From assembly GCA_964619315.1 (NCBI GenBank), contig CAZUEH010000004.1:24285-88284 (forward strand): a DNA stretch of 64,000 nt, in the 5' to 3' direction. Under the pieces are notes generated by a model that saw only the letters and a program-made list of their open reading frames with translations, searched no databases and had not been told where the DNA came from. This document shows positions 271-56,128 of this stretch, one piece after another. Source of the DNA: an uncultured Oscillospiraceae bacterium. GTDB taxonomy: Bacteria; Bacillota; Clostridia; Peptostreptococcales; Anaerovoracaceae. How positions within the stretch are numbered: position 1 is the first letter of the stretch; the number at the start of each line of letters is the position of its first letter. The translations under genes were made by a program, and so were the position numbers.

Positions 271-2037
271 TTATTCTTCACGGTATGGGCAATGTCTACG
301 TGTACAGTGTTTGCAATCATGGTTGCAATTAGGTTTACCATCTACTTCTCCACATGCTCTCATCACATGAGGGTTCGCTTCTTTTTTTGGTTCCTCTGTT
401 TTAGGTGCTTCTTCAAGAACATCTGCTGCTTTCTTTATTGAGCGATCTGCAAGCAGTGCTTCTCTTTTGGCAGCTTCAACTTCTTCTGCTGTAGCGCCTC
501 CGATAGCTTCAGGATTCTTGTACTCGCTCATGTCATATCCCATATCTTCCATTTCCTTGATGTGGGCAGCTCTTTCTTCTTCTTTTGCCTTGCTCATTTC
601 ATTAAGTCTTTGAAGTTCCTCAATAAACTGTGCCTTATTGGCCTTTTGGTCTTGCTCTTTTAACTCAACCTTAAGTGACTTGGCAAGAAGTTTAATCGCT
701 CCCGCTCTATGGGTTTTAGAAAGAACGCCTATAGATGCCATTATGTAATCGTTATCTACCAATATTTTAACGGCATCGCTCGGATAAAGTTTCATGCCTG
801 TTTCATTGTCTTTTGCAATCAACTCCATTAGTTCAACTCTATGAGGAAGGTGGGTAAGGGCGCCACCTGTTCCTACAATGTATTTGATTTGTGTTAAGTC
901 TTTGCCTTCTGCAAGTGTCTGTCTGCCTGAAGGTCCATATACATATCTGATTTCGCCTGCATGTCTTTCTACTGCTCTTAAAACAGCTTCTTTAGTCAGA
1001 CGCTCTGCCAGTTTGAATTCGTCCTCTGTCTTTGGAATTGCAACATAAGATTCCAGAGTTTTGTCTAAGTCTATATGCAACTCTGTGTCACATTCTTTTC
1101 TCAGTTTCTCTTCGCCGATAGATTCGATTACTTTCATTCTGTTTACATATACACCCAAGTCGCCTTCAACAGTTCTCTTTGCCTTTGGCTCAGGTGCAGT
1201 CAAAATTCTAGCTACTGCATCAGAATCTTCTGTTACTGCATGAACGTCAGTGGTTGCCCCACCTACGTCGATTACCATTACATCCCCTATGCAATCATAC
1301 AAAAGCTTAGTGCATTCCATAACTGCGCCAGGAGTTGGTATTATTGGCCCGCTTACCATGTCTCTAACATGTTCCATACCAGGAGCGTTAGTAATATGGT
1401 CTTCAAAGGCGTCTTGTATTACCTTTCTGCAAGGCTCTACATTAAGGGTATCTATTCTAGGATACACGTTATCTATTAGGTAAAGGTATTGGCCGCTTTC
1501 TTCATCAAAAATCAGCTTCATTTCATCTTGATTTTCTATGTTTCCAGCATATACAACAGGAGTTTTTAGGCCCATGTTTCTTATCATTTCTGCATTATAA
1601 ATAGCCGTATCTCTTTCGCCGTAGTCTACGCCGCCAGCAATTAAAATAAGATTAGGGTCAATTGACTTGATTCTCGCCAAGTCGGTTCTTCTAAGTTTTC
1701 CAACTGTTATGTCATGGATAATTCCGCCAGCCCCTAGCGCTGCCTCTTTTGCGGCCTTTGCAGTCATATCATAAACAAGACCGTGAACGGTCATTTTTAA
1801 TCCGCCTGCTGCCGAAGATGTTGCTACCATGTCGTCATATTCTAAGCTGTCGATGGACATTTTTTTGCACAAGTCATCTATCGCTCCTTGTAGTCCAATT
1901 CGCACATCGCCTTCAACTACTGACGTAGGTGCTTGCCCCTGTCCCCAGAAGCAAGGATTATCACTGGACAAATCCTTAAAGGCATTTACTACAGTGGTGG
2001 TGGATCCGATTTCTGCTACTAATACATCTACTTTCAT
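271..2037 (-). CDS. GlmL/MutL-family (ASKHA-like) putative reactivase of D-ornithine aminomutase, with a long charged linker and a Cys-rich C-terminal tail
   Basis: The 588 aa ORF has an N-terminal MKVDVLVAEIGSTTTVVNAF phosphate-1-like motif typical of glutamate mutase accessory protein GlmL/MutL. It lies between oraE and orr. The C-terminus reads ...CGEVDGKPNCNHDCKHCTRRHCPYREE. Confidence 0.7.
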   Translation of the reverse strand: MKVDVLVAEIGSTTTVVNAFKDLSSDNPCFWGQGQAPTSVVEGDVRIGLQGAIDDLCKKMSIDSLEYDDMVATSSAAGGLKMTVHGLVYDMTAKAAKEAALGAGGIIHDITVGKLRRTDLARIKSIDPNLILIAGGVDYGERDTAIYNAEMIRNMGLKTPVVYAGNIENQDEMKLIFDEESGQYLYLIDNVYPRIDTLNVEPCRKVIQDAFEDHITNAPGMEHVRDMVSGPIIPTPGAVMECTKLLYDCIGDVMVIDVGGATTDVHAVTEDSDAVARILTAPEPKAKRTVEGDLGVYVNRMKVIESIGEEKLRKECDTELHIDLDKTLESYVAIPKTEDEFKLAERLTKEAVLRAVERHAGEIRYVYGPSGRQTLAEGKDLTQIKYIVGTGGALTHLPHRVELMELIAKDNETGMKLYPSDAVKILVDNDYIMASIGVLSKTHRAGAIKLLAKSLKVELKEQDQKANKAQFIEELQRLNEMSKAKEEERAAHIKEMEDMGYDMSEYKNPEAIGGATAEEVEAAKREALLADRSIKKAADVLEEAPKTEEPKKEANPHVMRACGEVDGKPNCNHDCKHCTRRHCPYREE

Positions 2038-2653: not shown

Positions 2654-4864
2654 TTATCTGTCGCCTCTTCTTCTCTGTCTTTCTTCTGCTAAGAAAGTTG
2701 CAACGTCGATACCGTGAGAGTTTCTTCCGAATCCCATGTCGATACCTGTCTTAACAGCTTCTTCAGGAATAACCTGAGTTCCGCCTGCGCAAAGGATAAC
2801 ATCATCTCTGATGCCCTTTTCAACGCATAGTTCATGAATTCTCTTCATGTTCTTGTAGTGAACGTTGTCGTGAGAAATGATAGTTGAGCAAAGGATTGCA
2901 CCAGCATTTTCTTCGATACAAGCGTCAACCATCTTTTCAACAGGAACGGAAGTTCCAAGGTAGATACATTCAATACCCCACTTTTCAATTCCGCCATGCT
3001 TAATGTTGATGATTTCTCTCATACCTACTGAATGCTCGTCTTCGCCTACAGTACCGCAGATAACTTTCATGTGCTCATGACCTTCGAACTCATCATATAG
3101 TTCTTTGTCAGTCATGTAATGTGGTTCAGGTGGAATTACAAGAGTAGTTAAGTCGATATCGAAATCAACTCTTCCCTTTAACTCGATTCTTGTACCTTCA
3201 GCATCCTGCATTACTTCTGCAGAAATTACTTCAGGGTCAACCAAGCCAATCTTTCTACCTAACTCAACAGCAGCAGCCTCTGCAACTCTCTTGTTGATTG
3301 GAAGCATCATTGTCATCATAACAACTCTGTCGCCACACCATTCAACTTCTGGAGTGATAATTTTGCCAGTTCTGTATTTAGCAACCTTTTCAAGTCTTGC
3401 TTCTACGTTATCATCGTCAAATTCGTCGATGTAAACGATCTTGCTTCTGTCTTCGAAAGTACATCCGCCGATTAATGCTGCAGGATCTTCAGGGTTTCCG
3501 CCGCACTGTTCTACGTTGTTGTATCCGTAGTGAGCAGTTACAGGAGCCATGTAGTCTTCATCTCTTTCGAAAATGAATCCATAGCCTACGCCGCCTTCGA
3601 TCTTTCTTGCAATACCGTCGCCGTTTCTTTCAGGATACTTAGCTGAGTCAACGAAGAATCCGTCTTGTACTGCCTGGAAGTATCCACCGTTTTCAACGAT
3701 TTCTTCCATGAACAGGCAAGCTCTTTCTTTAAGATCTCTTGCTGTTTCTCTTAAAGGTCCTTCATTCTTAAGTTCAACCATGTCCATAAGACCATCTAAT
3801 CCGATCAAAGTCTGCTTCGCAGTGTCGCAAGCTTCGATGTTGTAGATATGCCAAGGAACGTTTCTTCCTTCGTCTGGAGTGATAGTTGACTGGATATCAG
3901 CTCTTGTAAGTTTTGAGATAAGCATGTTCAGTACGTGAGTAACTGTAGCTTCTCTTGCTGAGGACTGGATGTACTTAGTGTTCATCTGAGCTCTCATCTT
4001 ATATCTGTCGCAAATGTCTCTCAAAGCAACTGCATAAGGTAGATCCATGTAAACGCATGGAGCTGGAGTTGCTGTAGGAGGTACTGTTGACAGTGAAATG
4101 TTTTCTGGCTTAATACCTACTTTTTCGGAGAATCTGGAGTTGATAGCATGCTGAACGATAAGTTCAGGCATTACTTTCCAAGCTTCTCTTGCAGTAGCGT
4201 TAGCATTGTGTGCTCCGTCTATCTGTAGGATGTTTGCCCATGCCATGATTTTCTTGGATTCGCAAGCATCTACGAAAGATCTTACACAGTTAATATCTCT
4301 GTAAAGTACGTTGTACTGAGGATCCTGATGCGCACCGTTTACGCCTTCTTCAGCGAATAGTACTGCAACGTCTGGTCCAGCAACGCCGGAGATATATGAA
4401 TGGTAGTTAATTGGACGACCAACTTCGTCTTCAATTAGGTCTACAGCTTTTCTCTGTGCACGAAGTTGTTTTCTTGTGATAGGAACACCACCGATACCCT
4501 GAGGAGTACCTTCCATTAGTCCATCGATATGGGACTGACCCATATGTCTGATAACCATTAGGTGATCCGCACCGTGCCATGCTCCCATTCTCATTCTTCT
4601 GATATCATCTTCAAATCTTCCGGAAGCGATTTCAGTAGTGATAGTCTGCATAGGCTGTGGATCTACATCTTCCATGAACTTTGCTGGAGGAAGTGGAACG
4701 CTCTGCTTCAAAGGCTTTGATATTTCATGATACTCAAAAGGTCCCATGTTCTGATCTTCAGCTTTTTCTCTCCAGATCCATCCTCTTCTTCTTGGTTCAT
4801 ATTTGTCAAGGTCTTTAAGAATATTGACAATATCTAACTTTTCGTTTCTTTTTAACTCTGTCAT
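2654..4864 (-). CDS. oraE: D-ornithine 4,5-aminomutase, large (beta, B12/PLP-binding) subunit
   Basis: The 736 aa size matches and the C-terminus has a B12-binding Rossmann-like region. The gene is translationally coupled to the 121 aa small subunit and sits in the ord-ortAB-oraSE cluster. Confidence 0.85.
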   Translation of the reverse strand: MTELKRNEKLDIVNILKDLDKYEPRRRGWIWREKAEDQNMGPFEYHEISKPLKQSVPLPPAKFMEDVDPQPMQTITTEIASGRFEDDIRRMRMGAWHGADHLMVIRHMGQSHIDGLMEGTPQGIGGVPITRKQLRAQRKAVDLIEDEVGRPINYHSYISGVAGPDVAVLFAEEGVNGAHQDPQYNVLYRDINCVRSFVDACESKKIMAWANILQIDGAHNANATAREAWKVMPELIVQHAINSRFSEKVGIKPENISLSTVPPTATPAPCVYMDLPYAVALRDICDRYKMRAQMNTKYIQSSAREATVTHVLNMLISKLTRADIQSTITPDEGRNVPWHIYNIEACDTAKQTLIGLDGLMDMVELKNEGPLRETARDLKERACLFMEEIVENGGYFQAVQDGFFVDSAKYPERNGDGIARKIEGGVGYGFIFERDEDYMAPVTAHYGYNNVEQCGGNPEDPAALIGGCTFEDRSKIVYIDEFDDDNVEARLEKVAKYRTGKIITPEVEWCGDRVVMMTMMLPINKRVAEAAAVELGRKIGLVDPEVISAEVMQDAEGTRIELKGRVDFDIDLTTLVIPPEPHYMTDKELYDEFEGHEHMKVICGTVGEDEHSVGMREIINIKHGGIEKWGIECIYLGTSVPVEKMVDACIEENAGAILCSTIISHDNVHYKNMKRIHELCVEKGIRDDVILCAGGTQVIPEEAVKTGIDMGFGRNSHGIDVATFLAEERQRRRGDR

Positions 4865-5229
4865 TACTTCTTACCTCCCTTGAAATCTTCTACTAACTTG
4901 TCCCAACCTTCGCCTTTAGCTAATTTAATGCTAGCGTCTCTGATTGAAATGTTTTCCATTTTTGACAATTTGTAAACACAATGTCCACATCCCTTACCCA
5001 TCAAACCATGGTCAATTGCGTGGTTAACGATAGGCATACAATCTAGGGAAGAAACTCCCATTCTCAAAAGAACGGATCTTTCTACTGAAGGAGTTGTGTT
5101 CTTTTTGCCTAATTCAAGAAGCGGTTCAACAACTTTGTCAGTTAGCTCCCAAAATCTTGCATAAAGTTCTTCGTCAGTAAGGTTTGCAATATGCTTTCTT
5201 CTTACTTCGAAATCATCATCTCTTCTCAT
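4864..5229 (-). CDS. oraS: D-ornithine 4,5-aminomutase, small (alpha) subunit
   Basis: A 121 aa ORF lies immediately upstream of oraE and overlaps it by 1 nt. Size and position match OraS. Confidence 0.8.
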   Translation of the reverse strand: MRRDDDFEVRRKHIANLTDEELYARFWELTDKVVEPLLELGKKNTTPSVERSVLLRMGVSSLDCMPIVNHAIDHGLMGKGCGHCVYKLSKMENISIRDASIKLAKGEGWDKLVEDFKGGKK

Positions 5230-33068: not shown

Positions 33069-33069
33069 A

Positions 33070-33840: not shown

Positions 33841-33921
33841 AATACTTCCTCCTATTTTATGTCTGCTGTTATTATATAATATTTTCACACTCATTACTAT
33901 AGTTATTGTTAAAAAAATAGA

Positions 33922-33937: not shown

Positions 33938-34029
33938 TCTATCTATTTTTAGCTTTCCTGTTGGTCTGGCTGGGAGCGTACGGCTTTGCTATTTGTTTCC
34001 ATTTTTTCCCATTTATGTCAATTCTCGAT

Positions 34030-36620: not shown

Positions 36621-36642
36621 TATATATAAAGTCCTTTCAAAC

Positions 36643-38013: not shown

Positions 38014-38075
38014 ACGCTTTTCCCTAATTAGTTAATTTGTTGCAAAAAGGGCTGTCAAAGAGACAGCCCTCCATA

Positions 38076-38873: not shown

Positions 38874-38898
38874 GTTTTGCTTTTCCTCCAATATAAAG

Positions 38899-39612: not shown

Positions 39613-39621
39613 TTTCCTCCA

Positions 39622-39852
39622 TTATTTTAAAGGGTCGTATCCTCCTTCATGCCAAGGATGACACTTTAAAATTCGTTTAATTCCCAAGTAACCGCCTTTT
39701 ATTGGCCCGTATTTTTCCAGTGCCTGTATAAAATATGTCGAACAGGTTGGAGTAAAACGACATGTCGAGGGGAAAAGCGGCGAAATAATCTTCTGATAAA
39801 ACTTAATTAACAGAATCATAATTTTTTTAAAAAAATTACTTATAAATTTCAT
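39622..39852 (-). CDS. yidD: membrane protein insertion efficiency factor YidD
   Basis: The 76 aa ORF reads [31 protein letters not shown]...KRILKCHPW. Confidence 0.85.
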
Positions 39853-40190
39853 TTTACTTTTTTAACCCCGGCTCTCCTAAAGGCAGAATTAAGGGATTTT
39901 TCAACTTCTGCACATTTTTTGTCACAAATAGTGTTTCTTGCAATGATAATAAAATCATAGCCAATAGGCAGCCTCTTTTCGATGCTACGATAGCTTTCTT
40001 TCATAAGGCGCTTTGCTCTGTTTCTTTTAACACTATTTCCGACTTTTTTGCTTGCCAAAACCCCTGTCCTGTTATAAGAAAGTCCATTTGGACGATAAAA
40101 TAAAACTACATATCGGTCTCCAATTGACTTGCCTCTTTTATATATGGCCGAAAAATCGCCATTTTTTCTCAAAACATTCTTTTTTAGCAT
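39849..40190 (-). CDS. rnpA: ribonuclease P protein component
   Basis: The 113 aa ORF is basic and has an RNR-like motif ([11 protein letters not shown]). It follows rpmH. Confidence 0.9.
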
Positions 40191-40217
40191 TGTTTACAAA
40201 TCCTTCGGATTCATTGA

Positions 40218-40352
40218 TTAAGCACTAAGTTGCTTTCTTCCTTTAGCTCTTCTTCTCTTCAAAACGTTTCTACCGTTTTTTGTGCTCATTCTTTTTCTGA
40301 AGCCATGTTCCTTCATTCTCTGTCTCTTTTTTGGTTGATAAGTTTGTTTCAT
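40218..40352 (-). CDS. rpmH: 50S ribosomal protein L34
   Basis: 44 aa: [45 protein letters not shown] trimmed the start to the ATG at 40350-40352, which follows an AAAGGAGAA SD. Confidence 0.9.
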
Positions 40353-40400
40353 TTCTAAGGTTCTCCTTTCCAAACGTGTTTGTGTAAATCTAAATTCCAA

Positions 40401-40628
40401 TTACACACATATGCCTTGATATTATAAATTAAAAACCGTTGAATGTCAATGATTTCATGGATTATCTTTTCCTCAAAAACTTATTAAAAATTGTTCCCAC
40501 TTTTATCCACATCCTGTGGATAACTTATTTAATTATTTATTTTTCAAATATCACAAGTTCACACTTGCCTGTGGATAACTTTTTAGTTAGAATGTAACTA
40601 TACAACAAAAAAATTAAGAAGGTTTGTT
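40401..40628. other. oriC, upstream DnaA-box cluster (rpmH-dnaA intergenic region)
   Basis: Perfect DnaA boxes are TTATCCACA at 40503-40511 and TGTGGATAA at 40515-40523 and 40570-40578. The context is AT-rich. Gene orientation flips at this position. Confidence 0.8.
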
Positions 40629-41990
40629 ATGGATTATAATAAGATTTGGGAAAGCGTACTTAGCAAAATGGAGCAGCTAACAACTCCAATAAGCTATACA
40701 ACATGGATTCTACCCCTAAAAATCAGAAGGATCGACAAAGAATTAAAAATAGTTTATCTTGAGGTCAATTCAGACAGCAAAAGTGAATTCATCATCAAGA
40801 CTATTAAAAATAGATATATTACCGGCCTCGAAACTACTTTTAAGGAAGTTTTAGAGGATAGTTTTCGTGTAGTTTTAAAGGATTCTGAGCAATATAGAGT
40901 CGAAGAAGAAAAAACCGAACCAAAACTCAAACCTAAAACTAATACTTTGAACCACGAAAAAATATTCAATCCAAGATTTAATTTCGCAAATTTTGTAGTT
41001 GGTAACAGCAATAAGTATGCTCATGCTGCCTCCTTGGCAGTCGCCGAGTCTCCATCAGAAGCTTACAACCCTCTGTTTATATATGGTGCTTCTGGACTTG
41101 GTAAGACACATTTGATGCATGCTATTGGAATTTACCTTTTAGAAAATAATCCTTCACAAAATGTTTTATATGTTTCCTCTGAAATGTTTACAAATGAGCT
41201 TATAAAAGCTTTGCGTAATCACACTATGAACGAATTTAAGTCGAAATATAGAAAAGTAGACGTTCTTCTTATTGATGATATACAATTTTTAGAGGGAAAA
41301 GAAAATACACAGGAAGAATTTTTCCACACTTTTAACTCCCTATATGATTTAAATAAGCAGATAATCATTTCGAGTGACAGGGCTCCAAATAAATTGGTAA
41401 ATTTGGAGGAAAGACTTAGATCAAGATTCCAATGGAACTTAATTGCTGACATTCAGCCGGCAGATTATGAAACAAGAGTTGCAATCCTGATTAAAAAAGC
41501 AGAAAATATGGGTCTAAACTTAGAAGAAAACCCTGAACTTTATGATGTTGTCTGCATGATCGCAGAGAAAATAAAAGATAATATTAGAGAACTTGAAGGA
41601 GCATTGATACGAGTAGTATCTTTCTCTCAACTACTAAATGAAAAATTGGATAAGAATTTTACTCGAAAAACTTTAAAAGATATTTTTAGTAATTTAGAAA
41701 GAACTGTAACTCCTGAGAAAATCAAGAAAACCGTCTGCAAACACTACGGAATAAAGGTTTCTGATATGGAATCTTCTAAAAAAACTAATAATATAGCTTT
41801 TCCAAGGCAAATAGCAATGTATCTTATTCGTGAGATGACAGATTACTCTCTTCCTAAGATTGGACAATTCTTTGGAGGAAAACATTATACGACTGTTTTA
41901 TATGCTTGCGACAAGATAAATGATGATTTGCAAATAGATAAAAACTTGTCCGAAATAATAAATCAAATCAAAGAAGAGTTGAAAGAATAA
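40629..41990 (+). CDS. dnaA: chromosomal replication initiator protein DnaA
   Basis: The 453 aa ORF has Walker A GASGLGKTHL and a C-terminal DNA-binding region IAFPRQIAMYLIREMT...GGKHYTTVLYA. Confidence 0.97.
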   Translation: MDYNKIWESVLSKMEQLTTPISYTTWILPLKIRRIDKELKIVYLEVNSDSKSEFIIKTIKNRYITGLETTFKEVLEDSFRVVLKDSEQYRVEEEKTEPKLKPKTNTLNHEKIFNPRFNFANFVVGNSNKYAHAASLAVAESPSEAYNPLFIYGASGLGKTHLMHAIGIYLLENNPSQNVLYVSSEMFTNELIKALRNHTMNEFKSKYRKVDVLLIDDIQFLEGKENTQEEFFHTFNSLYDLNKQIIISSDRAPNKLVNLEERLRSRFQWNLIADIQPADYETRVAILIKKAENMGLNLEENPELYDVVCMIAEKIKDNIRELEGALIRVVSFSQLLNEKLDKNFTRKTLKDIFSNLERTVTPEKIKKTVCKHYGIKVSDMESSKKTNNIAFPRQIAMYLIREMTDYSLPKIGQFFGGKHYTTVLYACDKINDDLQIDKNLSEIINQIKEELKE

Positions 41991-42156
41991 TAGTTATCCT
42001 AACCATTAAAAAGCATTTAACTTTTACTCCATATAATTTGAACAACCGTTTCTGTTGACGTTTTAATGGGTTTAGAAGTTATCCACAGATTTCACAGGCC
42101 CTACTACTACTATTACTACCAATAAATATAATTATTAACTAATACGGAGGTATTGT
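41991..42156. other. oriC, downstream part: DnaA boxes, GC clamp, DnaA-trio array and AT-rich unwinding element
   Basis: TTATCCACA lies at 42079-42087 and a degenerate TTATCCTAA at 41994-42002. A GGCC clamp follows. Then CTA CTA CTA CTA TTA CTA at 42101-42118 gives 3'-GAT/AAT-5' trios on the bottom strand. AATAAATATAATTATTAA follows. Confidence 0.7.
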
Positions 42157-43269
42157 ATGAAATTTTCTTGTAACCAACATACTCTTACAAAAGCACTTAA
42201 TATTGTTTCAAAAGCAGTCACTATAAGAACCACTATTCCTATCTTAAAAGGCATTCTTCTAAAAGTAGATGCTAACGGGATACTTACTATGGCAGCTTCC
42301 GATTTAGACTTAAGTATAGAGAAGAAGATAAAAGTAGAAAATAGTACCCCAGGCGAAATAGTGGTACTTTCCAAGTTATTTGGAGATATAATAAGAAAAC
42401 TTCCTGATGGAGTAATAACAATTGAAGAAAACGACGGTAAAATAAATATCAAATGTTCAAATTCCGAGTTTAACATAATAGGACTTTCCGCAGAAGAATT
42501 TCCTAATATAAACCCTAATGAAGAAGACACAGAAAAATTAGTTTTCAACAAAGAATTATTAAAAGACATGATAAAGAAAACCTCTTTTGCTGCAAGCATA
42601 GACGAAAATAAAGGTGCTATGACTGGAGTTCTTATTGAAATGGACGAAGATAGCTTAAACATGGTAGCTATAGACGGCTTTAGAATGGCAATAGCAAGAG
42701 AACAAATGAAAAACAAGAAAAAACAAAACATTATAATACCTGCCAAAATACTCACAGAAATAAGCAGAATAATAACAGAAGAAGAAATAAACAGTGATGA
42801 TGTAACAATGGTTCTAAATGAGAAAAAAGCGATATTTGTTATGGAAAACACTAAAATTGTTATAAGACTTTTAGAAGGCGAATTCATGAATTATAACAGA
42901 ATAATACCTACAGAAAACCCTTGCAAGGTTGTATTAAACAAAAATGATTTAATGAACAGCGTAGAAAGAGCATCACTTCTTGCAAAAGTAGGAAAAAACA
43001 ATCTTATAAAACTTGAAATAAAAGATAACGGCATAGAAATAACTTCCAAGTCAGAAGAAGGAAATGTTAAAGAGGAAGTAATCGCTTCAAAAGATGGAAA
43101 TGATATTATAATAGGATTCAACTCAAAATATTTAATAGATGTACTAAAAGTAATAGATGATGAAAACATAACCATGCTTTTCAACACAAATGTAAGCCCT
43201 TGCTTGATAAAACCACTTTCTGGAAATGAATTTGAGTACTTAATATTACCAGTAAGAATAAATCAATAA
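42157..43269 (+). CDS. dnaN: DNA polymerase III beta sliding clamp
   Basis: The 370 aa ORF begins MKFSCNQHTLTKALNIVSKAV and follows dnaA. Confidence 0.95.
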   Translation: MKFSCNQHTLTKALNIVSKAVTIRTTIPILKGILLKVDANGILTMAASDLDLSIEKKIKVENSTPGEIVVLSKLFGDIIRKLPDGVITIEENDGKINIKCSNSEFNIIGLSAEEFPNINPNEEDTEKLVFNKELLKDMIKKTSFAASIDENKGAMTGVLIEMDEDSLNMVAIDGFRMAIAREQMKNKKKQNIIIPAKILTEISRIITEEEINSDDVTMVLNEKKAIFVMENTKIVIRLLEGEFMNYNRIIPTENPCKVVLNKNDLMNSVERASLLAKVGKNNLIKLEIKDNGIEITSKSEEGNVKEEVIASKDGNDIIIGFNSKYLIDVLKVIDDENITMLFNTNVSPCLIKPLSGNEFEYLILPVRINQ

Positions 43270-44354
43270 TGTATATAAAAAAAATAGAATTAAAAAACTT
43301 CAGAAATTATGAAAACCTTGAATTAGAGTTTAATGAAAAGGCGAATTTTATAATTGGCAATAATGCTCAAGGCAAAACTAACCTTCTTGAGGGGATTTTT
43401 ATGTCTTCGGTTGGAAAATCTTTTAGAACTTCAAAAGATAGTGAAATGATTGGCTTTGATAAAGATTTTAGCAAAATTAAAGTTACAGCGCACAAAGATT
43501 TATTTCCGATAGAAGTAGATATAACTTTAAAAAAGGATGCTGGAAAATTCATAAAGGTAGATGGAGTTAATATATCAAAAACATCAGATCTTTTAGAAAA
43601 TGTATATATAGTTATATTTTCACCTGAAGATTTAAAAATAGTAAAAGATGAACCGGAAAAAAGAAGAAGATTTATAGATCGAGAACTTTGTATAATAAAA
43701 CCATCATATTACGACAGTTTTTTTAATTATAAAAAAGTTTTACTCCAAAGAAATACTTATATAAAAGAAAAAAGCATAGATAAATCCGTTCTCGACATAT
43801 GGGATATGCAGCTTGCAAAGTATGGAGCAAAAATTATATCGATGAGATATGATTTTATACAAAAAATAGATAAACTGAGCAATGAAATTCATAAAAGCAT
43901 AACCAATGGAAAAGAAAATCTGCGTATAGAATATGATCCTAACATTAAAATGGCAGATGAATTGGAAAAAACAGTTTACGAAGCTATTAAAAATTCTTAT
44001 TCAAATGACCTTAGGCTGAGAACCACAACAAAAGGGCCACATAGAGATGATATACAATTTTATATAGATAATGTAAATGTTAGAAGCTTTGGATCTCAAG
44101 GTCAGCAAAGAACTACAGCACTCTCTCTTAAACTTGCAGAGTTAAATATAATAAAAGAAGAGACTGGAGAAAGTGCAATTTTGCTTTTAGATGATGTTAT
44201 GTCAGAACTTGATTCAACACGACAGGAATTTTTGATAAAAACCTTATCTGACATACAACTTTTTATAACAACAACAGAGATTACACAGAATCTAAAAGAC
44301 GCAGTTTCCAAAGGAAATATATATACAATTGAAAAAGGAAAAGTAAAGCTATAA
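43269..44354 (+). CDS. recF: DNA replication and repair protein RecF
   Basis: The 361 aa ORF has Walker A GNNAQGKTNLLE, the signature GSQGQQRT and Walker B LLLDDV. Confidence 0.9.
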   Translation: MYIKKIELKNFRNYENLELEFNEKANFIIGNNAQGKTNLLEGIFMSSVGKSFRTSKDSEMIGFDKDFSKIKVTAHKDLFPIEVDITLKKDAGKFIKVDGVNISKTSDLLENVYIVIFSPEDLKIVKDEPEKRRRFIDRELCIIKPSYYDSFFNYKKVLLQRNTYIKEKSIDKSVLDIWDMQLAKYGAKIISMRYDFIQKIDKLSNEIHKSITNGKENLRIEYDPNIKMADELEKTVYEAIKNSYSNDLRLRTTTKGPHRDDIQFYIDNVNVRSFGSQGQQRTTALSLKLAELNIIKEETGESAILLLDDVMSELDSTRQEFLIKTLSDIQLFITTTEITQNLKDAVSKGNIYTIEKGKVKL

Positions 44355-44405
44355 AAAACATACCAGAATCAAGAGATATATACGCTGTTTTTTATAGCTT
44401 TTTTA
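44346..44405 (+). terminator. possible terminator after recF (long stem, large loop)
   Basis: AAGCTATAAAAAACA-N25-TGTTTTTTATAGCTT followed by TTTT. The stem is AT-rich, so this call is weak. Confidence 0.35.
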
Positions 44406-44529
44406 GTTGGAAAAATCGGTTTTAAGAGGGGTAAAAATAAAAAAACAAGAAACAATATTAAATGAAGAATTTATTTGAATAAAACCCCAAAATATGGTAT
44501 ACTAATCGCTGGGATTGTAACTTGCTTAA

Positions 44530-46500
<1,971 letters not shown>

Positions 46501-46518
46501 GGAAAGGAGGGCTTATAG

Positions 46519-49005
46519 ATGACTACATTTTTAGAAGATCAGAAGTTGATTCAACACGAAATCAACAAAGAAATGAAAGACTCATATATCGATTATGCCA
46601 TGAGCGTAATCGTAGGCCGTGCCCTTCCTGATGTCAGGGATGGACTGAAGCCAGTACATAGAAGAATCCTTTATGGTATGAGTGGGCTAGGAATAACTCC
46701 GGACAAGCCACACAAAAAGTCGGCACGTATCGTCGGAGAAGTAATGGGTAAATATCACCCACATGGAGACTCATCAATTTACGATGCAATGGTAAGATTA
46801 GCACAGCCATTTAGCATTCGTTATATGCTAATAGACGGACACGGAAACTTTGGTTCAGTGGACGGAGACGGTGCTGCTGCGATGCGTTATACCGAGGCGA
46901 GAATGACACCTCTTGCGTTGCAAATGCTTAGAGACCTCGAAAAAGATACTGTAGATTATATGACTAACTTTGACGGCGAGGAAAAAGAACCTACCGTACT
47001 ACCAGCAAGATTTCCGAACCTTCTAGTAAACGGATCTAATGGTATAGCAGTAGGTATGGCGACCTCAATTCCACCTCACAACTTAGTAGAGGTAATTGAT
47101 GCTGCCGTAAAACTTATAGATGAACCAGAATCTACAGTAGAAGACCTTATTAAGATAGTAAAAGGACCAGACTTCCCTACCGGAGCTGTTATAATGGGCA
47201 AATCTCACATGAGAGAAGCCTATCGAACAGGACAAGGTAAGGTAGTAGTAAGAGCTGTAACAGAAATAGAAGAAACTTCCCACGGCAAACAGCAGATCGT
47301 AGTTACAGAAATTCCTTATCAAGTAAACAAGGCTCGTCTAATAGAGAAGATTGCAGACCTTGTAAGAGACAAAAGAGTTGAAGGAATTACAGCTATACGA
47401 GATGAATCAAACCGAAAAGGAATGCGTATAGTCATAGAACTTAAGAGAGATGCTAATGCTAATATAATCCTAAACAGATTGTATAAACATACTCAAATGC
47501 AAGACAGCTTCTCAATGATTATGCTGGCACTTGTAGATGGACAACCAAAGATTTTAAATCTTCATGAAATCATCAACGAGTATTTGAAGCATCAAAAAGA
47601 AGTAGTTACAAGAAGAACTATCTTTGACAAGAAAAAAGCCGAAGCTAGAGCACACATCTTAGAAGGTTACCTAATTGCATTGGACAACATAGATGAAATC
47701 ATCAAGATAATCAGAAGCAGCTATAACGATGCCAAAGAAAAATTGATGGACAGATTCAGCCTTTCAGATATTCAGGCACAAGCCATTTTGGACATGCAGC
47801 TACGTAGGCTACAAGGCTTAGAAAAAGAAAAAATCGAAAGCGAATATCAAGAGCTTCTTAAGAAAATCGCATACTATGTAGAACTTCTTGCAGACGAGCA
47901 AAAGTTGATGGGCGTAGTAAAAGAAGAATTGATTGAAATTAGAGACAAGTGGGGCGACAAGAGAAGAACTCAGATCAAGGCAGACTCATTGGAAATCGAT
48001 GAAGAAGATTTGATCGAACAAGAAGAAGTTTGCATCACGGTTACCCATCTTGGATACGTAAAGAGAGTGCCAGTAGACACATACAAGGCACAAAGAAGAG
48101 GCGGAAAGGGAATCACTGGACTTACAACTCGTGAAAACGACTTTGTTAAGAACATGATAATGACATCAACTCACGACCACCTCATGTTCTTTACCAATAC
48201 AGGAAAAGCCCACAGAATCAAGGCTTACGAGATTCCAGAGGCGACAAGAACGGCAAGAGGAACTCCAGCTGTTAATTTCCTAAACTTGATGCAGAGAGAA
48301 AGAGTTACAGCCGTAATTCCAATCAAAGAATTTGCAGAAGATAAGTTCTTGGTAGGAGTTACTAAGGATGGTATAATCAAGAAGACTGCTCTTTCCAACT
48401 TTGATACCAACAGAAAAACTGGCCTCATAGCAATGAACCTAAAAGAGGGAGACCAGCTTATCGACATCAAGCAAACAACAGGTAGCAATAATGTTATCAT
48501 CGTAACTAAGCACGGCAAATGCATTTGCTTCTCCGAGGAAGATGTAAGACCTATGGGAAGAATCGCTGGTGGAGTTAGAGCAATCAAGCTTGAAAAAGAT
48601 GACGAAGTTGTATCAATGGAATTAGTAGAACCTGGTCAGGAGCTTTTGGTAGTTACCGAAAAAGGCTTTGGAAAAAGGACTAAAGTAGAAGAATATAAGA
48701 TTCAAGTTAGAGGCGGAAAAGGTCTCTTAACCTACGACAAGACCAAGTTTAAGAAAACAGGACAGCTTGTAGGCGCTATGGTTGTAGACGATGAGGATGA
48801 CATTATGTTAATCAACTCTAACGGAATAATCATAAGAATGCAGGCCAAAGAAATTTCAAGACTTGGAAGAGCAACTCAAGGAGTTAAAATAATGAACGTT
48901 GGAGACGAGGTTAACATTATTGCCCTTGCTAAGGTTGCAAGAGAAGACGAACTTGAATTAGAACAAGATTCATCCGAAGTACAAGAGCAACTTGAACTAA
49001 AATAA
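46519..49005 (+). CDS. gyrA: DNA gyrase subunit A
   Basis: The 828 aa ORF has the motifs [24 protein letters not shown] and a QRDR-like region [12 protein letters not shown], with the active-site Tyr in AAMRYTE. Confidence 0.97.
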
Positions 49006-51218: not shown

Positions 51219-53627
51219 TTATATTTTTAGCCAGTCTGAATAGCGAACCGTGTCCATTGCATCCTTTGCATATTTGTCAGCACCAATGCGGTCTGAATAC
51301 TCTTTATTGAGAACTGCGCCGCCTACGATGACTTTGCACCATGGGGCGGAAGTTTTTAGGAGCTGGATGGTTTTTTCCATTGCAGGAACGGTGGTAGTCA
51401 TAAGGGCGCTAAGGCCGACTATTGGAGCGTGAGTTTCTACTACTGTTTGGACAATTGTTTCAGGGGAAACGTCTTTGCCCAAGTCTATTACCTTGAAGCC
51501 ATAGTTTTCCAAAAGGAGTTTTACTATGTTCTTCCCTATGTCATGAATATCGCCTTCTACAGTAGCGATAACCACTGTGCACTTGCTTTTGAAATCAGCA
51601 GAGCGAGGCACAAAGATTTTGATTTGCTCGAAAGAGGCCTTTGCCGCTTCCGCGCTCATGAGAAGCTGAGGCAAGAAAAAACGCTTTTCGTCGTACCCAT
51701 TGCCTACGATGTCGAGAGCAGGGATTATTTCATTTTGAATTACATCAAGAGCTTCTCTACTGGATATAAGTTCTTTTGTGCATTGGACAGCGGCGTCTCT
51801 CATCCCTTTTATAATGGCTTTCTGCAAAGGAGAAGCATATTCTCCTTGAGGGCTACCAGCTGCTATCGATACTGCAGAAGGTGCTGCAGCGGCAGCTTGA
51901 GGAATATTCTCACTAAACGCTATGTACTCACTACAATTTTCGTCCATGTCATGTAAAGCCTTGTAAGAATAGTAGACTTTGAGCATGTCCTGGGAGTATG
52001 GGTTCATTATGGCCGCCGAGAGGCCCTTTTCTAAGGCGCACGCGAAGAAAGTGCTGTTAATTGCATCTCTGCCCGGCAAACCAAAAGAAACGTTAGAAAC
52101 ACCAAGAGAGGTGTGACAGCCCATTTCATTTTTGATGATGTCGAGAGCCTTTAGCGTTTCTTTCGCAGCAAGTGAATCAGCGCTGACAGTCATAGCCAAT
52201 GTATCAAAGATAATGTCCTTTTTATCAATTCCGTATTCGGCAGCTTTCGCTAATATTTTGCGCGCAATGGCAACCCTGCCCTCTGCAGTAGCAGGAATGC
52301 CGTCCTCATCCAAGGTAAGAGCAACTACTAAGCCACCATATTTTTTAACAAGTGGAAAGACTTCGTTCATAGAAGATTCTTTGCCGTTGATTGAGTTGAT
52401 CATTGCTTTGCCGTTGTAACGACGCAAAGCCGCTTCCATAGCCTTAACGTCTGCAGTGTCGATTTGAAGAGGCAAGTTGATGATGGACTGAAGTTCATAC
52501 ACGGCTTTTTCTAGCATCCACACCTCGTCAATTTCAGGAAGTCCAACGTTGACATCAAGAATATGTACATTAAGATCTTGCTGGCTTATTCCCTCTTGCA
52601 AAATATAGTCTATATCTTTTTCCTGTAGAGCCTGCTTGAAACGCTTCTTTCCTGTAGGGTTGATTCGCTCCCCAATGAGTATAGGAGATTTGTCGAATTC
52701 CACTATATGAGTGTAAGAAGACACGCAAGTTATATTTTTTGGAGTTACAGGAACTGGGGGAATTGAAGAAGTTCCCTCCACTATAGTTTTAATGTATGAA
52801 GGGTCTGTACCGCAGCACCCGCCGATTAAGCGAACCCCTTGACCGACAGCATCAGCAAGATCTGAGGCAAATTCGCCAGGAAGAGTACTGTAAACTGCTT
52901 TTCCGTCAACCTCTGCAGGAAGTCCTGCATTAGGCTTGAGGAGTACAGGTATTGAAGAATATTGAAGAAGTTCCTCTATTACTCCTGTAAGTTGCTTTGG
53001 TTCAAGGGAACAATTTGCTCCAAGAGCATCAGCGCCCATACCTTCGATAAGTGCAACCATGGCAGCAGGAGAAGCACCGGTCATTAGCTTTCCGTCTTCA
53101 CCGTAAGCGTTGGAAACGAATACAGGCAAATCGCTGTTTTCCTTAGCGGCTAACAATGCAGCCTTAGTTTCGTAGCTGTCGCTCATGGTTTCTATAAATA
53201 TTAAATCCACACCTTTGTCAGCACCCGCCCTAACTATTTGGGCAAAAAGCTCAACTGCATCCTCAAAATCATAATCTCCATATGGTTTAAGAAGACGGCC
53301 ACAAGGACCGATGTCAAGGGCTATGAACTTTTGCTGTGGAGCTGTGGAAGTTTCTTTTGCTCTTTTAGCATTTTCGATAGAGGCGGCAACTATTTGATTT
53401 AGCTCGTCCAAAGAAAACTTTAGAGAGTTAGCCCCAAAAGTATTGGTGTTTACCACATTGCTTCCCGCATCAAAATAGTCTCTATGGATTTTTTCTACTT
53501 CAGCAGGATGGGTAATATTCCACATTTCTGGATGCTCACCGGGAGCAAGGCCAGCCTCTTGAAGCAAAGTCCCCATTCCACCATCAAGGTAGACTAGGTT
53601 ATCTTTCATATATTCTAAAATGTTCAT
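51219..53627 (-). CDS. metH: methionine synthase core (homocysteine S-methyltransferase, pterin-binding and B12-binding domains) without a fused reactivation domain
   Basis: The 802 aa ORF has an Hcy-binding N-terminus (GGMGT, GGCCGT). The cobalamin motif GDIHDIGKNIV is of the DxHxxG type. The ORF ends after the B12 domain. Confidence 0.85.
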   Translation of the reverse strand: MNILEYMKDNLVYLDGGMGTLLQEAGLAPGEHPEMWNITHPAEVEKIHRDYFDAGSNVVNTNTFGANSLKFSLDELNQIVAASIENAKRAKETSTAPQQKFIALDIGPCGRLLKPYGDYDFEDAVELFAQIVRAGADKGVDLIFIETMSDSYETKAALLAAKENSDLPVFVSNAYGEDGKLMTGASPAAMVALIEGMGADALGANCSLEPKQLTGVIEELLQYSSIPVLLKPNAGLPAEVDGKAVYSTLPGEFASDLADAVGQGVRLIGGCCGTDPSYIKTIVEGTSSIPPVPVTPKNITCVSSYTHIVEFDKSPILIGERINPTGKKRFKQALQEKDIDYILQEGISQQDLNVHILDVNVGLPEIDEVWMLEKAVYELQSIINLPLQIDTADVKAMEAALRRYNGKAMINSINGKESSMNEVFPLVKKYGGLVVALTLDEDGIPATAEGRVAIARKILAKAAEYGIDKKDIIFDTLAMTVSADSLAAKETLKALDIIKNEMGCHTSLGVSNVSFGLPGRDAINSTFFACALEKGLSAAIMNPYSQDMLKVYYSYKALHDMDENCSEYIAFSENIPQAAAAAPSAVSIAAGSPQGEYASPLQKAIIKGMRDAAVQCTKELISSREALDVIQNEIIPALDIVGNGYDEKRFFLPQLLMSAEAAKASFEQIKIFVPRSADFKSKCTVVIATVEGDIHDIGKNIVKLLLENYGFKVIDLGKDVSPETIVQTVVETHAPIVGLSALMTTTVPAMEKTIQLLKTSAPWCKVIVGGAVLNKEYSDRIGADKYAKDAMDTVRYSDWLKI

Positions 53628-53629
53628 GT

Positions 53630-54301
53630 TTATTCCTCCCTAAAACTACAGTCGAATTTTTCGCATTGGGCACAGGTGCCTGAATGACAATCCTTTTTTA
53701 TACTGGAAATGCCAATTAAGGCAGAAACTGATTTAGATGGTGACATTAAAAGACTTTCATTTAAGGAAAGCCCTATCTTTCTATTGCAGTCTAATACATC
53801 AAAGATGCTCTTTTGGCTTTCCAAAGAAAAATCCCCATAACCTGGGCTAAAACGAGGCCTAGTGAAAAGCCCCTCTGCCAAACAGTCCTTGGTAATTTCA
53901 TCGTTAAAAGCATTACAAAGACTTTCGATTCGCTCAGCACCTATTGCCTGAAAGCAAAGAGCCTTTGATGGCGAAGTTCGGCCATACCTTGCTATAAGCC
54001 TATCGGGTTCAAGACCGATAGTGGCAGCAAACAACACTATCTTCTTACAGTCAGATAGGTTTTTAATTAAATCTTTGCTATTTGTGGTCATAAAAGAAAG
54101 ATCGGCAATATCCGTTGACACTTCAATGTCAAAAGAGCGGTAGCAAACTTTGTAAGTGAGCTTTGGTGCAAGTTCATCAATACAGTCTTCTACCAGAGCA
54201 AGAACCTCCGCAGACGATTCCTTGCAACCCATGTAGCGTAAGATTTCTTTTTTATTTAATTGGGGCGTGTCATATTTTTTGACAAGAAGGGTGTTTATCA
54301 T
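53630..54301 (-). CDS. stand-alone methionine synthase activation (AdoMet-binding/reactivation) domain protein with a Cys-rich C-terminal tail
   Basis: The 223 aa ORF lies between metF and metH and has the motif RFSPGYGDF typical of the Met_synt_B12 domain. The C-terminus is DCHSGTCAQCEKFDCSFREE. Confidence 0.7.
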   Translation of the reverse strand: MINTLLVKKYDTPQLNKKEILRYMGCKESSAEVLALVEDCIDELAPKLTYKVCYRSFDIEVSTDIADLSFMTTNSKDLIKNLSDCKKIVLFAATIGLEPDRLIARYGRTSPSKALCFQAIGAERIESLCNAFNDEITKDCLAEGLFTRPRFSPGYGDFSLESQKSIFDVLDCNRKIGLSLNESLLMSPSKSVSALIGISSIKKDCHSGTCAQCEKFDCSFREE

Positions 54302-55179
54302 AATTTCCCCAAAATGTTTGATAGATTACTTTGTATTTTCTGTGCAACATCTGGTTTATTCATAGAATAAACATGGACATTGGTTATGTTATTAGCAAAA
54401 AGGTCGATTATTTGGTCTGTTGCATATGCGATACCTGCTTGCTTCATTGCTTCTGGGTCTGAACCAAACTTGTCCACCAAACTCTTAAAACGTTGTGGTA
54501 CATGAGAACCAGAAAGGCTAACTGCTCTTTCCACCTGCTTAGCATTGGTGATAGGCATAATTCCTGCAACAACAGGGACGGTAACGCCTGCTTCTCTAAG
54601 TTTGTACATATAGTTGTATAGCAAGTTGTTATCAAAGAACATTTGAGTGGTTAGAAATTCGCAGCCAGCATCGACTTTTTCTTTTACAAACTGGATGTCT
54701 TCCTTTTGGCTGGAGCTTTCCGGGTGGATTTCAGGATAGCATGCTCCTCCTATGCAGAAGTCAGCACCAGACTCTTTTAGTTCTCTAATAAGGTCGATTG
54801 CGTTGTGATAATGCCAGCTGCTTTTGTCGGACAAATCCATGTCCTGTGGCAAGTCCCCTCTAAGGGCCATTATATTTTCAAGGCCAGCCTCTTTAATTTC
54901 ACGGATTTTTTCGCGAACGGTATCCTTGGTAGAGGAAACGCAAGTAAGATGAGCCAGAGTAGGCACATCATAGAGGTCCTTAATGTTTTTTGCAATATCA
55001 AGGGTATATTTACTTGTGCCGCCGCCAGCACCATAAGTTACACTCATAAAGGTAGGCTTTAGCTTAGCGATTTCATCTGTAGCGGCTTTTACACTATCAA
55101 ATGAAGAGTCAACCTTTGGCGGAAAGACTTCAAAAGATAGGGACAAAGTTTCTTGTTTTAGTTGGTTAATCAATTTCAT
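54298..55179 (-). CDS. metF: methylenetetrahydrofolate reductase
   Basis: The 293 aa ORF begins SFEVFPPK and also has TYGAGGGT and the ALRGD motif. It overlaps the next gene by 4 nt. Confidence 0.85.
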   Translation of the reverse strand: MKLINQLKQETLSLSFEVFPPKVDSSFDSVKAATDEIAKLKPTFMSVTYGAGGGTSKYTLDIAKNIKDLYDVPTLAHLTCVSSTKDTVREKIREIKEAGLENIMALRGDLPQDMDLSDKSSWHYHNAIDLIRELKESGADFCIGGACYPEIHPESSSQKEDIQFVKEKVDAGCEFLTTQMFFDNNLLYNYMYKLREAGVTVPVVAGIMPITNAKQVERAVSLSGSHVPQRFKSLVDKFGSDPEAMKQAGIAYATDQIIDLFANNITNVHVYSMNKPDVAQKIQSNLSNILGKL

Positions 55180-55215
55180 TATATTTTCACTCTTTTCTTA
55201 TAATTATACCTAACC

Positions 55216-55245
55216 ATTATACACTGATAAAGCGTGTTAAATCAA
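55216..55245 (-). promoter_or_regulatory. sigma-70 promoter of the metF/activation-protein/metH operon
   Basis: On the minus strand: TTGATT, an 18 nt spacer, then an extended -10 TGTATAAT. The 5' UTR is only about 35 nt, with no room for a riboswitch. Confidence 0.45.
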
Positions 55246-55277
55246 GAGTTAGCTTAGCTCTAGCATTGTGTTTAGAG

Positions 55278-55310
55278 AATAAAAAACGGAAGCTCTTTTG
55301 AACTTCCGTT
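55278..55310 (-). terminator. intrinsic terminator after the larC1-like gene
   Basis: The minus strand reads AACGGAAG-N10-CTTCCGTT followed by TTTTTTAT. Confidence 0.65.
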
Positions 55311-55357
55311 GTCAGCACTATTTCTTGTTAATTTGCAGAAACTGGTATCCTCAGGAT

Positions 55358-56128
55358 TTAGCCCATTTCGCCATAGTAAACTTTTAAATGATTAGAATGT
55401 CCGATGTCTTTGAACCCTGCTCCGAAGCCAATCTTTTCTAGTTTCATTTCAGGCATCATGTCATATTCTTCTGCTAAAGTAGATATGATTGCAGCTCCAG
55501 TTGGAGTTACTAACTCTGTAGGAACATCGATTTGCTTAAACTTAACATTTTCGTTTGTAAAGATTGCCGAGGTTGCAGGCACTGGCACACTTAGCTTTCC
55601 ATGAGCGCAAGTGATAAATCCGTGCCCTTCGTTTACTGTGCTAGAAATAATTTTATCAGGGTTTAATTTATTGACTAAAATGGCAGTACCGACGATGTCG
55701 ATAATAGAGTCAATAGCCCCTACTTCATGAAAATGAACCTGTTCCAAGGTCTTATTATGAACTTTGCTTTCTGCGGCAGCCACTTTTAAGAATATTTTCT
55801 TTGCGAGAGCCTTTGTGTTTTCATCTAAACTGCTATTGTCAATAAGTTCGTTAACGTCATAAAGATTTCTATGTTCATGATGATGGTGGTGTCCGCCGTG
55901 CAGATGAGGAGCATGACCATATTCGTCTTTTACATCAATTAAGACATCGACATAAGTCCCGCTTATTCCATAGGAGTCCTTTTTATATATTTCTATCTCA
56001 TAACCATCAACATTCAATTTCTTGACTTCGTCTAAAAAATACTTTTCATCATCAACCAATTCCAATAGCGCACCTAACGTCATGTTGCCACATATTCCGC
56101 TAGAGCAATCAAAATATAATAATCTCAC
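55358..56128 (-). CDS. larC: LarC-family (DUF111) nickel insertion protein, N-terminal LarC1 part only, with a His-rich tract
   Basis: The 256 aa ORF begins MRLLYFDCSSGICGNMTLGALLEL. The His tract is HLHGGHHHHHEH and the motif VHFHEVGAIDSIIDIVG is present. The ORF stops where LarC2 would begin and is followed by a terminator. Confidence 0.65.
   Translation of the reverse strand: MRLLYFDCSSGICGNMTLGALLELVDDEKYFLDEVKKLNVDGYEIEIYKKDSYGISGTYVDVLIDVKDEYGHAPHLHGGHHHHHEHRNLYDVNELIDNSSLDENTKALAKKIFLKVAAAESKVHNKTLEQVHFHEVGAIDSIIDIVGTAILVNKLNPDKIISSTVNEGHGFITCAHGKLSVPVPATSAIFTNENVKFKQIDVPTELVTPTGAAIISTLAEEYDMMPEMKLEKIGFGAGFKDIGHSNHLKVYYGEMG

Follow-up and report, generated by a model that had tools for sequence, protein, structure and literature searches.

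The 64,000-nt stretch of contig CAZUEH010000004.1 analyzed here (the window), from an uncultured Oscillospiraceae bacterium, encodes a 223-amino acid (aa) protein, Act, that is a separate S-adenosylmethionine (SAM)-binding reactivation subunit of a split cobalamin-dependent methionine synthase (MetH) and lies in a metF-act-metH(core) gene order. The subunit is of an otherwise known type, represented by TM0269 of Thermotoga maritima; what sets it apart here is a conserved cysteine tail at its C terminus. A tethered Cys3(+1) tail is conserved on most Clostridial split-MetH reactivation subunits, and a variant is found on distant orthologs, including those of Coriobacteriia. A second protein of the window, related to GlmL and encoded at the end of an ornithine degradation cluster, ends in a tail of similar pattern. 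A sequence-only reading of this DNA had taken the two for one shared module on two B12-repair proteins; the tail proved robust on the MetH subunit, but on the GlmL-like protein it is narrow and statistically unlinked to the first. We tentatively propose, with a rough probability of 40%, that the Act tail is a metal center that acts as a tethered iron-sulfur (Fe-S) relay or as a donor dock for cob(II)alamin reduction, and that the GlmL-like tail may be of the same type.

Act is the stand-alone reactivation subunit of a split MetH

The features of the MetH locus are as follows:

54298..55179, minus strand: metF, methylenetetrahydrofolate reductase (PF02219 and TIGR00676, above cut-off)
53630..54301, minus strand: act, stand-alone MetH reactivation (SAM-binding activation-domain) subunit, 223 aa (PF02965; TM0269/1j6r sequence and fold)
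53633..53689, minus strand: Cys tail of Act, C205-x4-C210-x2-C213-x4-C218-S-F-R-E-E (translation, motif scan)
53639-53674: conserved core of the Act tail, C210..R221 (67-ortholog alignment)
51219..53627, minus strand: metH core, 802 aa, with homocysteine, folate (pterin), cap and B12 domains and without an activation domain (PF02574, PF00809, PF02607 and PF02310 only)

Act is the translation of open reading frame (ORF) 53630-54301(-), and its C-terminal end, KKDCHSGTCAQCEKFDCSFREE, is the one that the sequence-only reading had written. The three genes are packed end to end on the minus strand: the stop codon of metF and the start codon of act overlap (ATGA), and metH begins 2 nt past the act stop. 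The match of the MetH core to TIGR02082 stops at model position 840 of 1182. Act matches the MetH activation domain family PF02965 over aa 133-196 (E 1.6e-8) and, by phmmer, TM0269 (PDB: 1j6r) over aa 18-198 (E 1.4e-10). An AlphaFold2 model, built from an alignment of 67 orthologs, has a predicted local distance difference test score (pLDDT) above 90 in the body of the protein, and its best Foldseek match is again 1j6r (TMq 0.76, TMt 0.85), followed by MetH activation domains, with 8ssd, 6bm5 and 1msk among the entries and Thermus, E. coli and human among the sources. Residues 148-157 form the SAM-binding segment RPRFSPGYGD, in which R150, S152, G154, Y155 and D157 are invariant among the 67 orthologs; we take this segment to be equivalent to the SAM-binding RxxxGY (R-x-x-x-G-Y) motif of E. 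coli MetH. Sequence, fold, SAM motif and the neighboring MetH without an activation domain all fit, and Act belongs to the stand-alone reactivation subunits of the TM0269 type.

The gene order was followed in a species-level sample with one genome per species, which gave 80 Clostridial loci (Oscillospiraceae, Lachnospiraceae, Acutalibacteraceae, Eubacteriales and others). The order metF-act-metH core was found wherever the flank suffices, with metF directly upstream in nearly all loci and a metH core downstream of act in every locus with enough flank. Co-occurrence with split metH, proposed earlier as a check, was seen here and also at two distant loci described below. Two of the loci, typical Clostridial metF-act-metH triads, come from Bacteroides stercoris and Alistipes communis bins and probably reflect mis-binning, not Bacteroidota genes.

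TM0269, whose partner is the split MetH TM0268, resembles Act in fold, family, SAM motif and a neighboring MetH without an activation domain. Work by Huang et al. in 2007 reportedly found TM0269 to be needed for SAM-dependent reductive reactivation of the core enzyme, for TM0269 alone. Unlike Act, TM0269 stops where the domain does (...GWREKNEKQT), as do 24 Thermotoga-type relatives, and none of them has a Cys tail. These proteins also differ in the body of the domain, where Clostridial orthologs carry C40, C53, C85, C129 and C172 at 90-100% conservation, with or without a tail; none of these positions is Cys in TM0269.

A cysteine tail is conserved at the C terminus of Act

The core of the tail, C-x2-C-x4-C-x-[FY]-[R/S], is present in 117 of the best 120 Act homologs (54-69% identity), where it lies 1-4 residues, rarely more, from the C terminus. 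Across the 67 aligned orthologs (55-68% identity), C210, C213 and C218 never vary, and the conservation of R221 is at least 90%. At the species level, 70 of the 80 Clostridial orthologs have the tail and 10 stop directly after the domain. Because proteins without a tail are dispersed among those with one in a neighbor-joining tree, the tail appears to have been lost repeatedly, and a single loss was dropped as an explanation. These data indicate that the Act tail is old, widespread and under selection in stand-alone MetH reactivation proteins.

The conserved unit is C-x2-C-x4-C-x-[FY]-R. The terminal REE, which the sequence-only reading had counted as a conserved part, is conserved in neither protein family: tails of Act orthologs usually end in RR, RRx, RG or RK, and the joint REE ending of the Act and GlmL-like tails appears to be a coincidence of this genome. 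A Cys upstream of the core is frequent, found in 121 of 167 distinct Act tails (~72%) and mostly 3-5 residues before the core. The remaining tails have His (13), acidic residues only (30) or nothing obvious (3) in its place.

Among the 80 Clostridial loci, the low-complexity linker between domain and tail varies in length from ~5 to more than 50 residues, and aa 208-223 of Act were modeled by AlphaFold2 at a pLDDT below 50; for both reasons the tail behaves as though tethered to the fold, not built into it. It is short and hydrophilic, with a mean net charge of +1.2 among the tails, and lies outside the PF02965 family model. A Pfam search of four tails at E<=10 gave no family, only chance matches to PF12669 FeoB_associated (17 bits) and a viral tegument model, so that by its sequence the tail appears to belong neither to PF04060 nor to a zinc-knuckle or other Pfam family. 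In the searchable literature, which does not extend to the full TM0269 study, neither MetH reactivation subunits nor GlmL-like proteins were found to be described as having a Cys tail; the sequence-only reading, too, was aware of no description of the terminal motif as a unit.

More distant proteins were sampled as 120 homologs from a search with TM0269 as query. These include the 24 Thermotoga-type proteins without a tail, 36 with the CX2CX4C form (form A) and 30 with a second form, C-x2-C-x5-C-x-[YLFI]-R-x6-C, whose fourth Cys is 8 residues past the third (among proteins P0267-P0362). Two carriers of the second form bear source names, an Atopobiaceae metagenome-assembled genome (MAG) and a Slackia MAG. 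Both second-form proteins that were checked for context (L170 6001-6696 and L172 6001-6654) adjoin a MetH core without an activation domain. By sequence, what appears constant across both forms is three closely spaced Cys followed by x-hydrophobic/aromatic-Arg, with a fourth Cys on either side.

The GlmL-like protein carries a lineage-specific tail

The second tail belongs to the following features:

271..2037, minus strand: GlmL-related ornithine-degradation protein (Or-4 type, actin-like ATPase family), 588 aa (NF040744, PF13941)
670-2037, minus strand: GlmL-like core, aa 1-456 (NF040744, aa 3-456)
340-669, minus strand: aa 457-566, linker part that contains the GYDMS[AE]YK stretch; the whole charged linker spans aa 457-570 (~110 residues)
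274..327, minus strand: Cys tail, C571-x3-C575-x2-C578-x4-C583-P-Y-R-E-E (translation)
2654..5229, minus strand: oraE (2654-4864) and oraS (4864-5229), putative D-ornithine 4,5-aminomutase dependent on B12 and pyridoxal phosphate (operon context)

The protein matches NF040744, "GlmL-related ornithine degradation protein", over aa 3-456 with 710.5 bits (cut-off, 600) and PF13941 with 549.8 bits. Its C-terminal sequence is GKPNCNHDCKHCTRRHCPYREE, and the part past the linker is CNHDCKHCTRRHCPYREE. Since the NF040744 model ends at aa 456, the linker and the tail are additions to the family core. The gene closes an ord-ortA-ortB-oraS-oraE-GNAT-glmL cluster and is the last before orr. The names oraE and oraS come from operon context, with NF040743 as a weak B12-domain relative, and the gene order is kept in metagenomic loci. 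The OraE/OraS mutase is the presumed client of the GlmL-like protein. The sequence-only reading had assigned both tail-bearing proteins "the same job", repair of an inactivated corrinoid; for the GlmL-like protein we infer this role from its annotation.

All of the best 120 GlmL-like homologs (81-100% identity; one is named as an Anaerovoracaceae MAG) keep C-x3-C-x2-C-x4-C-[PQK]-[YF]-[RG]. For a wider set, metagenome contigs were scanned with a crafted ATPase-motif pattern, D[VIL]GGATTD, which gave 80 members at 42-90% identity; most lie directly downstream of ord-ortAB-oraSE wherever the flank suffices, and we therefore consider them true orthologs. Only 7 of the 80 carry the Cys tail (L085-087, 089, 091, 093 and 098), and none of these falls below 73% identity to the window protein. 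A contig end truncates an eighth, and ~68 have no extension at all. Four close relatives (L092, L094, L095 and L097) have the linker with its conserved GYDMS[AE]YK stretch and no Cys tail, so linker and tail must have been gained or lost separately. The tail consensus of the clade is C-x-H-[DE]-C-x2-C-[TSM]-R-x-[HN]-C-[PQ]-[YN]-R, and because of its [YN] position the aromatic residue, described earlier as shared at position -4 and indeed F or Y in the two window tails, is not fixed. Conservation in orthologs, which the sequence-only reading expected of both proteins, was therefore found for Act (70 of 80 species, and a variant form beyond), but for the GlmL-like protein it is confined to close relatives. 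The GlmL-like tail is narrow and lineage specific.

A public gene call (locus L165 2533-3684) lets orr overlap the tail-coding region of the glmL-like gene. We rejected this overlap: the likely true start of orr is an ATG past the glmL-like stop codon, preceded by the ribosome-binding site TAAGGAGGA (window 230-275(-)), and the stop codon is consequently part of that site. The orr product is of the alanine-racemase family and probably an ornithine racemase. Between oraE and the glmL-like gene lies a GNAT acetyltransferase gene, 2058-2531(-), which is also there in L088-L091 (43-54% identity) and not in most ornithine operons.

The two tails share a pattern without significant similarity

Both window tails read C-x2-C-x4-C-x-[F/Y]-R-E-E-stop, and Act and the GlmL-like protein are the only two real ORFs of the window with CX2CX4C. 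The Cys spacing of the core is equal in both, as noted earlier; the additional upstream Cys is x4 away in Act but x3 in the GlmL-like protein, and it is missing from 28% of the 167 Act tails. The general pattern common to both is a position at the very end of the protein, after a long flexible linker, with C-x2-C-x-[K/R]-x2-C-x-Phi-R (Phi, hydrophobic or aromatic) and with R-to-G variants at the same position in both families. In their last 45 nt the two coding segments are 44% identical and use different codons for Arg and Glu, in agreement with the earlier statement that the segments are no DNA repeat.

A hidden Markov model (HMM) of the Act tail gave the GlmL-like tail a score of 2.5 bits (E=51 against 6,518 ORFs), and the reverse comparison gave 7.4 bits (E ~2); neither is significant. 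In a position-specific scoring matrix with the Cys fixed, the nine other positions of GlmL-type tails reached p ~0.01-0.05 against random residues, almost all of it from [FY]R, compared with ~17 bits for MetH-subunit tails against their own matrix. Because neither kind of score is significant beyond [FY]R, common descent of the two tails is unproven. Judged by sequence, independent invention of the same kind of metal knuckle appears equally possible, and the "shared module" would at best be a shared type of metal knuckle.

Other carriers were sought in the window and 160 loci (~2 Mb, ~1,450 non-overlapping ORFs of at least 150 aa), all of them around the two genes. At least three Cys in the last 20 residues were found in 69 MetH subunits, 9 GlmL-like proteins and 5 others, and none of these five has the motif. 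The three identifiable ones are an endonuclease III-type protein (HhH-GPD, L012), an aldo-keto reductase with a ferredoxin domain and an FmdE with a DksA-type (DksA/TraR) zinc finger. Searches of these neighborhoods for CX2CX4C and C-x2-C-x(4,5)-C-x-Phi-[RK] near C termini gave no further real carrier. One CX2CX4C, at L070 3025-3339(+), was rejected as a tail because it is an internal motif (VTCLQCNAEKC) of a regulator cut by the contig end. This regulator lies downstream of MetH in a Clostridia MAG and is apparently Rrf2-type by its N-terminal sequence. The Cys spacing of the Rrf2 family is C-x5-C-x5-C, unlike the C-x2-C-x4-C of L070.

The survey argues against frequent occurrence of the motif on unrelated proteins and puts its upper bound at about a handful of carriers per genome. 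The earlier check for the motif on unrelated proteins thus turned up no other carrier within these neighborhoods. A tail-only profile of 19 positions gave no match at E<=0.001 among 1.84 billion representatives, but it is too short: true tails score only 22-30 bits, and new tail families could therefore not surface in such a search. The generic motif holds ~22-26 bits of information, from which we estimate 10^4 to 10^5 chance matches in large DNA collections.

Possible functions of the tail

Reactivation of MetH needs one low-potential electron for cob(II)alamin and a methyl group from SAM, and in E. coli free flavodoxin supplies the electron. To our knowledge, the low-potential electron route to cob(II)alamin MetH in strict anaerobes is not established, and only E. 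coli flavodoxin and human MSR are well studied. The spacing CX2CX5C binds [4Fe-4S] in FNR, Wbl and endonuclease III. CX2CX4C binds [4Fe-4S] near the ThiC C terminus (PMC4389238), and CX2CX4CX16C(P) does so in AcsC/CdhE, RnfB and the HydS subunits of sensory hydrogenases (PMC4023990; PMC8163306). Such precedents, with three close Cys and a fourth ligand that may move or be lacking, together with the demands of reactivation, make a tethered cluster the most economical reading of the tail.

We hypothesize that the tail binds a metal center, most likely of the [4Fe-4S] type, through its three Cys and a variable fourth ligand, which would be the upstream Cys (~72%), the downstream Cys (variant form) or else His, Asp or none. 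With MetH in its reactivation conformation, the tail would swing on its tether to the cobalamin domain and there either pass on a single low-potential electron or dock a donor, so that cob(II)alamin would be reduced to cob(I)alamin and then remethylated from SAM. A tail that takes the place of the electron donor, or docks it, is plausible. In one ornithine-fermenting clade, the GlmL-like protein would have acquired a tail of the same type behind its 110-residue linker, and its combination of ATPase and metal module would have the layout of ATP-dependent corrinoid activators. As a rough split of what the tail might bind, we would give ~50% to Fe-S, ~35% to zinc and ~15% to anything else. A bolder version holds that the tail is a minimal three-Cys tethered [4Fe-4S] electron-entry peptide dedicated to cobalamin repair, attached independently by anaerobes to at least two B12-repair proteins, which would make the split MetH of gut Clostridia and Coriobacteriia self-sufficient in reductive reactivation from bulk ferredoxin and whose open iron might contact SAM as in ThiC; this we regard as a long shot.

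Known systems offer partial parallels. The cluster in the corrinoid iron-sulfur protein (CFeSP) serves reductive reactivation of the Co center and not catalysis, as proposed for the Act tail. The FeS domain PF04060 (CFeSP AcsC/RnfB/HydS) has the same C-x2-C-x4-C spacing as the Act tail (PMC4023990; PMC8163306), but its fourth Cys, with a Pro, follows ~16 residues downstream and is absent in Act, which ends 3-6 residues past the third Cys. The aromatic residue is also one position off, and no PF04060 match was found at E<=10, so the domain serves as a working analogy and not as a family to which the tail belongs. ThiC likewise has a three-Cys CX2CX4C near its C terminus, with a cluster segment that inserts into a SAM-bound active site (PMC4389238). 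The ThiC motif, however, is part of a folded helical cluster domain and serves radical SAM chemistry, whereas the Act tail is bare and sits on a methyl-transfer reactivation domain, with no sequence relation between the two.

For the GlmL-like protein, the closest layout is that of corrinoid methyltransferase activators, which combine ATP binding and hydrolysis with one [2Fe-2S] or two [4Fe-4S] clusters; RACo, RamA and the O-demethylase activating enzyme pair an ATPase with Fe-S clusters to reduce Co(II) (PMC6739815), and an ATPase with a Cys tail would follow the same modular logic. These activators have canonical ferredoxin domains and an ATPase of a different subfamily, and the comparison is one of layout, not of homology. 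The GlmL-like protein would serve an adenosylcobalamin-dependent mutase, with a putative reactivase role, unlike the RACo/RamA-type activators.

Two further short Cys motifs are superficially similar. The loop of endonuclease III and MutY has four Cys in fewer than 20 C-terminal residues in the order C-xn-C-x2-C-xm-C, as in the tail; the protein in L012 is an example, with C-x6-C-x2-C-x5-C. The endonuclease III-type spacing C-x6-C-x2-C-x5-C binds [4Fe-4S]. Its loops of 6 and 5 residues compare with 3-5 and 4 in the tails, and it is not tethered but packed on a DNA-binding HhH-GPD domain, classically without a redox relay. In the CCHC zinc knuckle (C-x2-C-x4-H-x4-C), the third ligand is His, whereas it is Cys in the Act tail, which in form A has no downstream ligand and no zf-CCHC match.

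Several observations weigh against a tethered cluster. The metal is predicted from sequence, and a tail this short and hydrophilic would offer a cluster little shielding. The spacing C-x2-C-x4-[C/H] is also that of zinc knuckles, and a tail profile searched against the PDB gave nothing significant, with Azotobacter ferredoxin I (E 1.3) and a Gag zinc knuckle (E 1.6) side by side. The tail must be dispensable, since ~12% of the Clostridial orthologs (10 of 80) and all Thermotoga-type ones do without it. No ferredoxin or split-off tail ORF that might compensate was found beside the tail-less act genes, and this idea was dropped; so was that of a fourth-ligand or docking Cys elsewhere, as the presence of the tail was matched by no co-varying Cys in MetF, the MetH core or the body of Act. 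The carrier survey is biased to the neighborhoods of the two genes and hence amounts to no proteome-wide test, and the link between the Act and GlmL-like tails is, at the sequence level, one of pattern and not of significant similarity.

The tail could instead have no redox role and be a structural zinc knuckle, Zn(Cys)3-4: a basic peg that latches onto the MetH cobalamin domain or MetF, or that recruits an acidic ferredoxin or flavodoxin. C-x2-C-x4-C/H does correspond to the first three CCHC ligands, in keeping with the weak Gag match, and a short, hydrophilic tail of positive mean charge that is disordered in AlphaFold2 without a partner or metal would suit such a peg; one of the three identifiable other Cys-rich C termini is, moreover, a DksA/TraR zinc finger. 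What makes us doubt this explanation, a serious competitor all the same, is that only three Cys are invariant, with 28% of form-A tails lacking a nearby fourth Cys and 20% lacking an upstream Cys or His, which is unusual for structural zinc. Even at E<=10 the tails match none of the zinc-finger models of Pfam, and the hosts appear from record titles to be gut or fermenter anaerobes, in which such three-Cys spacing is typically Fe-S. We think it very improbable that the tail handles the corrinoid itself, through a thiolate-cobalt contact or as an aid to cobalamin loading or release, by analogy with the Co-S complexes of eukaryotic B12 trafficking proteins. Both hosts would work on cobalamin that is damaged or unloaded, the tether would bring the cofactor within reach of the tail, and according to a 2026 paper on human MTR, loading of cobalamin there depends on the accessory protein MMADHC. 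One thiolate would suffice for this, however, which leaves three invariant, closely spaced Cys unexplained; Pfam searches of the tails and the PDB profile search gave no sequence relation to known trafficking proteins, and the idea is pure analogy.

A different objection concerns the pairing and not the chemistry: the MetH tail may be an old family feature and the GlmL-like tail a recent, independent extension, their likeness being coincidental or convergent and implying no common function. The cross-family HMM scores (2.5 bits, E=51; 7.4 bits, E ~2), the p values of 0.01-0.05 at non-Cys positions, the unrelated coding DNA and the lack of a conserved REE in either family all agree with this, as do the rarity of the tail among GlmL-like orthologs (7 of 80), the sister proteins that have a linker without a tail and the several tails with Asn for the aromatic residue. 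Yet in both proteins the tail is the very last part of the chain and follows a long flexible linker, both tails have C-x2-C-x-[K/R]-x2-C-x-Phi-R with R-to-G variants at the same position, both hosts are corrinoid-enzyme accessory proteins, and no third carrier was found among the ~1,450 ORFs around the two genes. On balance, we consider unrelated tails unlikely.

The tethered metal site that we favor would have different consequences depending on its metal. If it is an Fe-S cluster, the tail would be one of the smallest natural cluster-binding units and, after CFeSP, the second case of a cluster kept solely for corrinoid repair. If it is zinc, the tail would still be a docking element of a kind not described before, on an enzyme that is central in abundant gut bacteria.

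Other features of the window

An Rfam scan of the whole window gave no family at gathering score, and on this basis the 178-nt gap (55180-55357) upstream of metF contains no riboswitch for SAM or cobalamin. The match of the 256-aa ORF just upstream of metF, 55358-56128(-), to PF01969, the LarC nickel-insertion family, is limited to 234 N-terminal positions out of 375; the ORF appears to encode a short or split LarC-like protein, and the arrangement recurs in other contigs of the same organism. Positions 32175-49005 look like a chromosomal origin region, with parB, parA, rsmG, mnmG, mnmE, jag and yidC found by scanning on the minus strand. The plus-strand ORFs from 40629 are presumably, by position alone, dnaA, dnaN, recF, gyrB and gyrA. 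The act and glmL-like genes are ~50 kb apart, one on either side of this presumed origin region.

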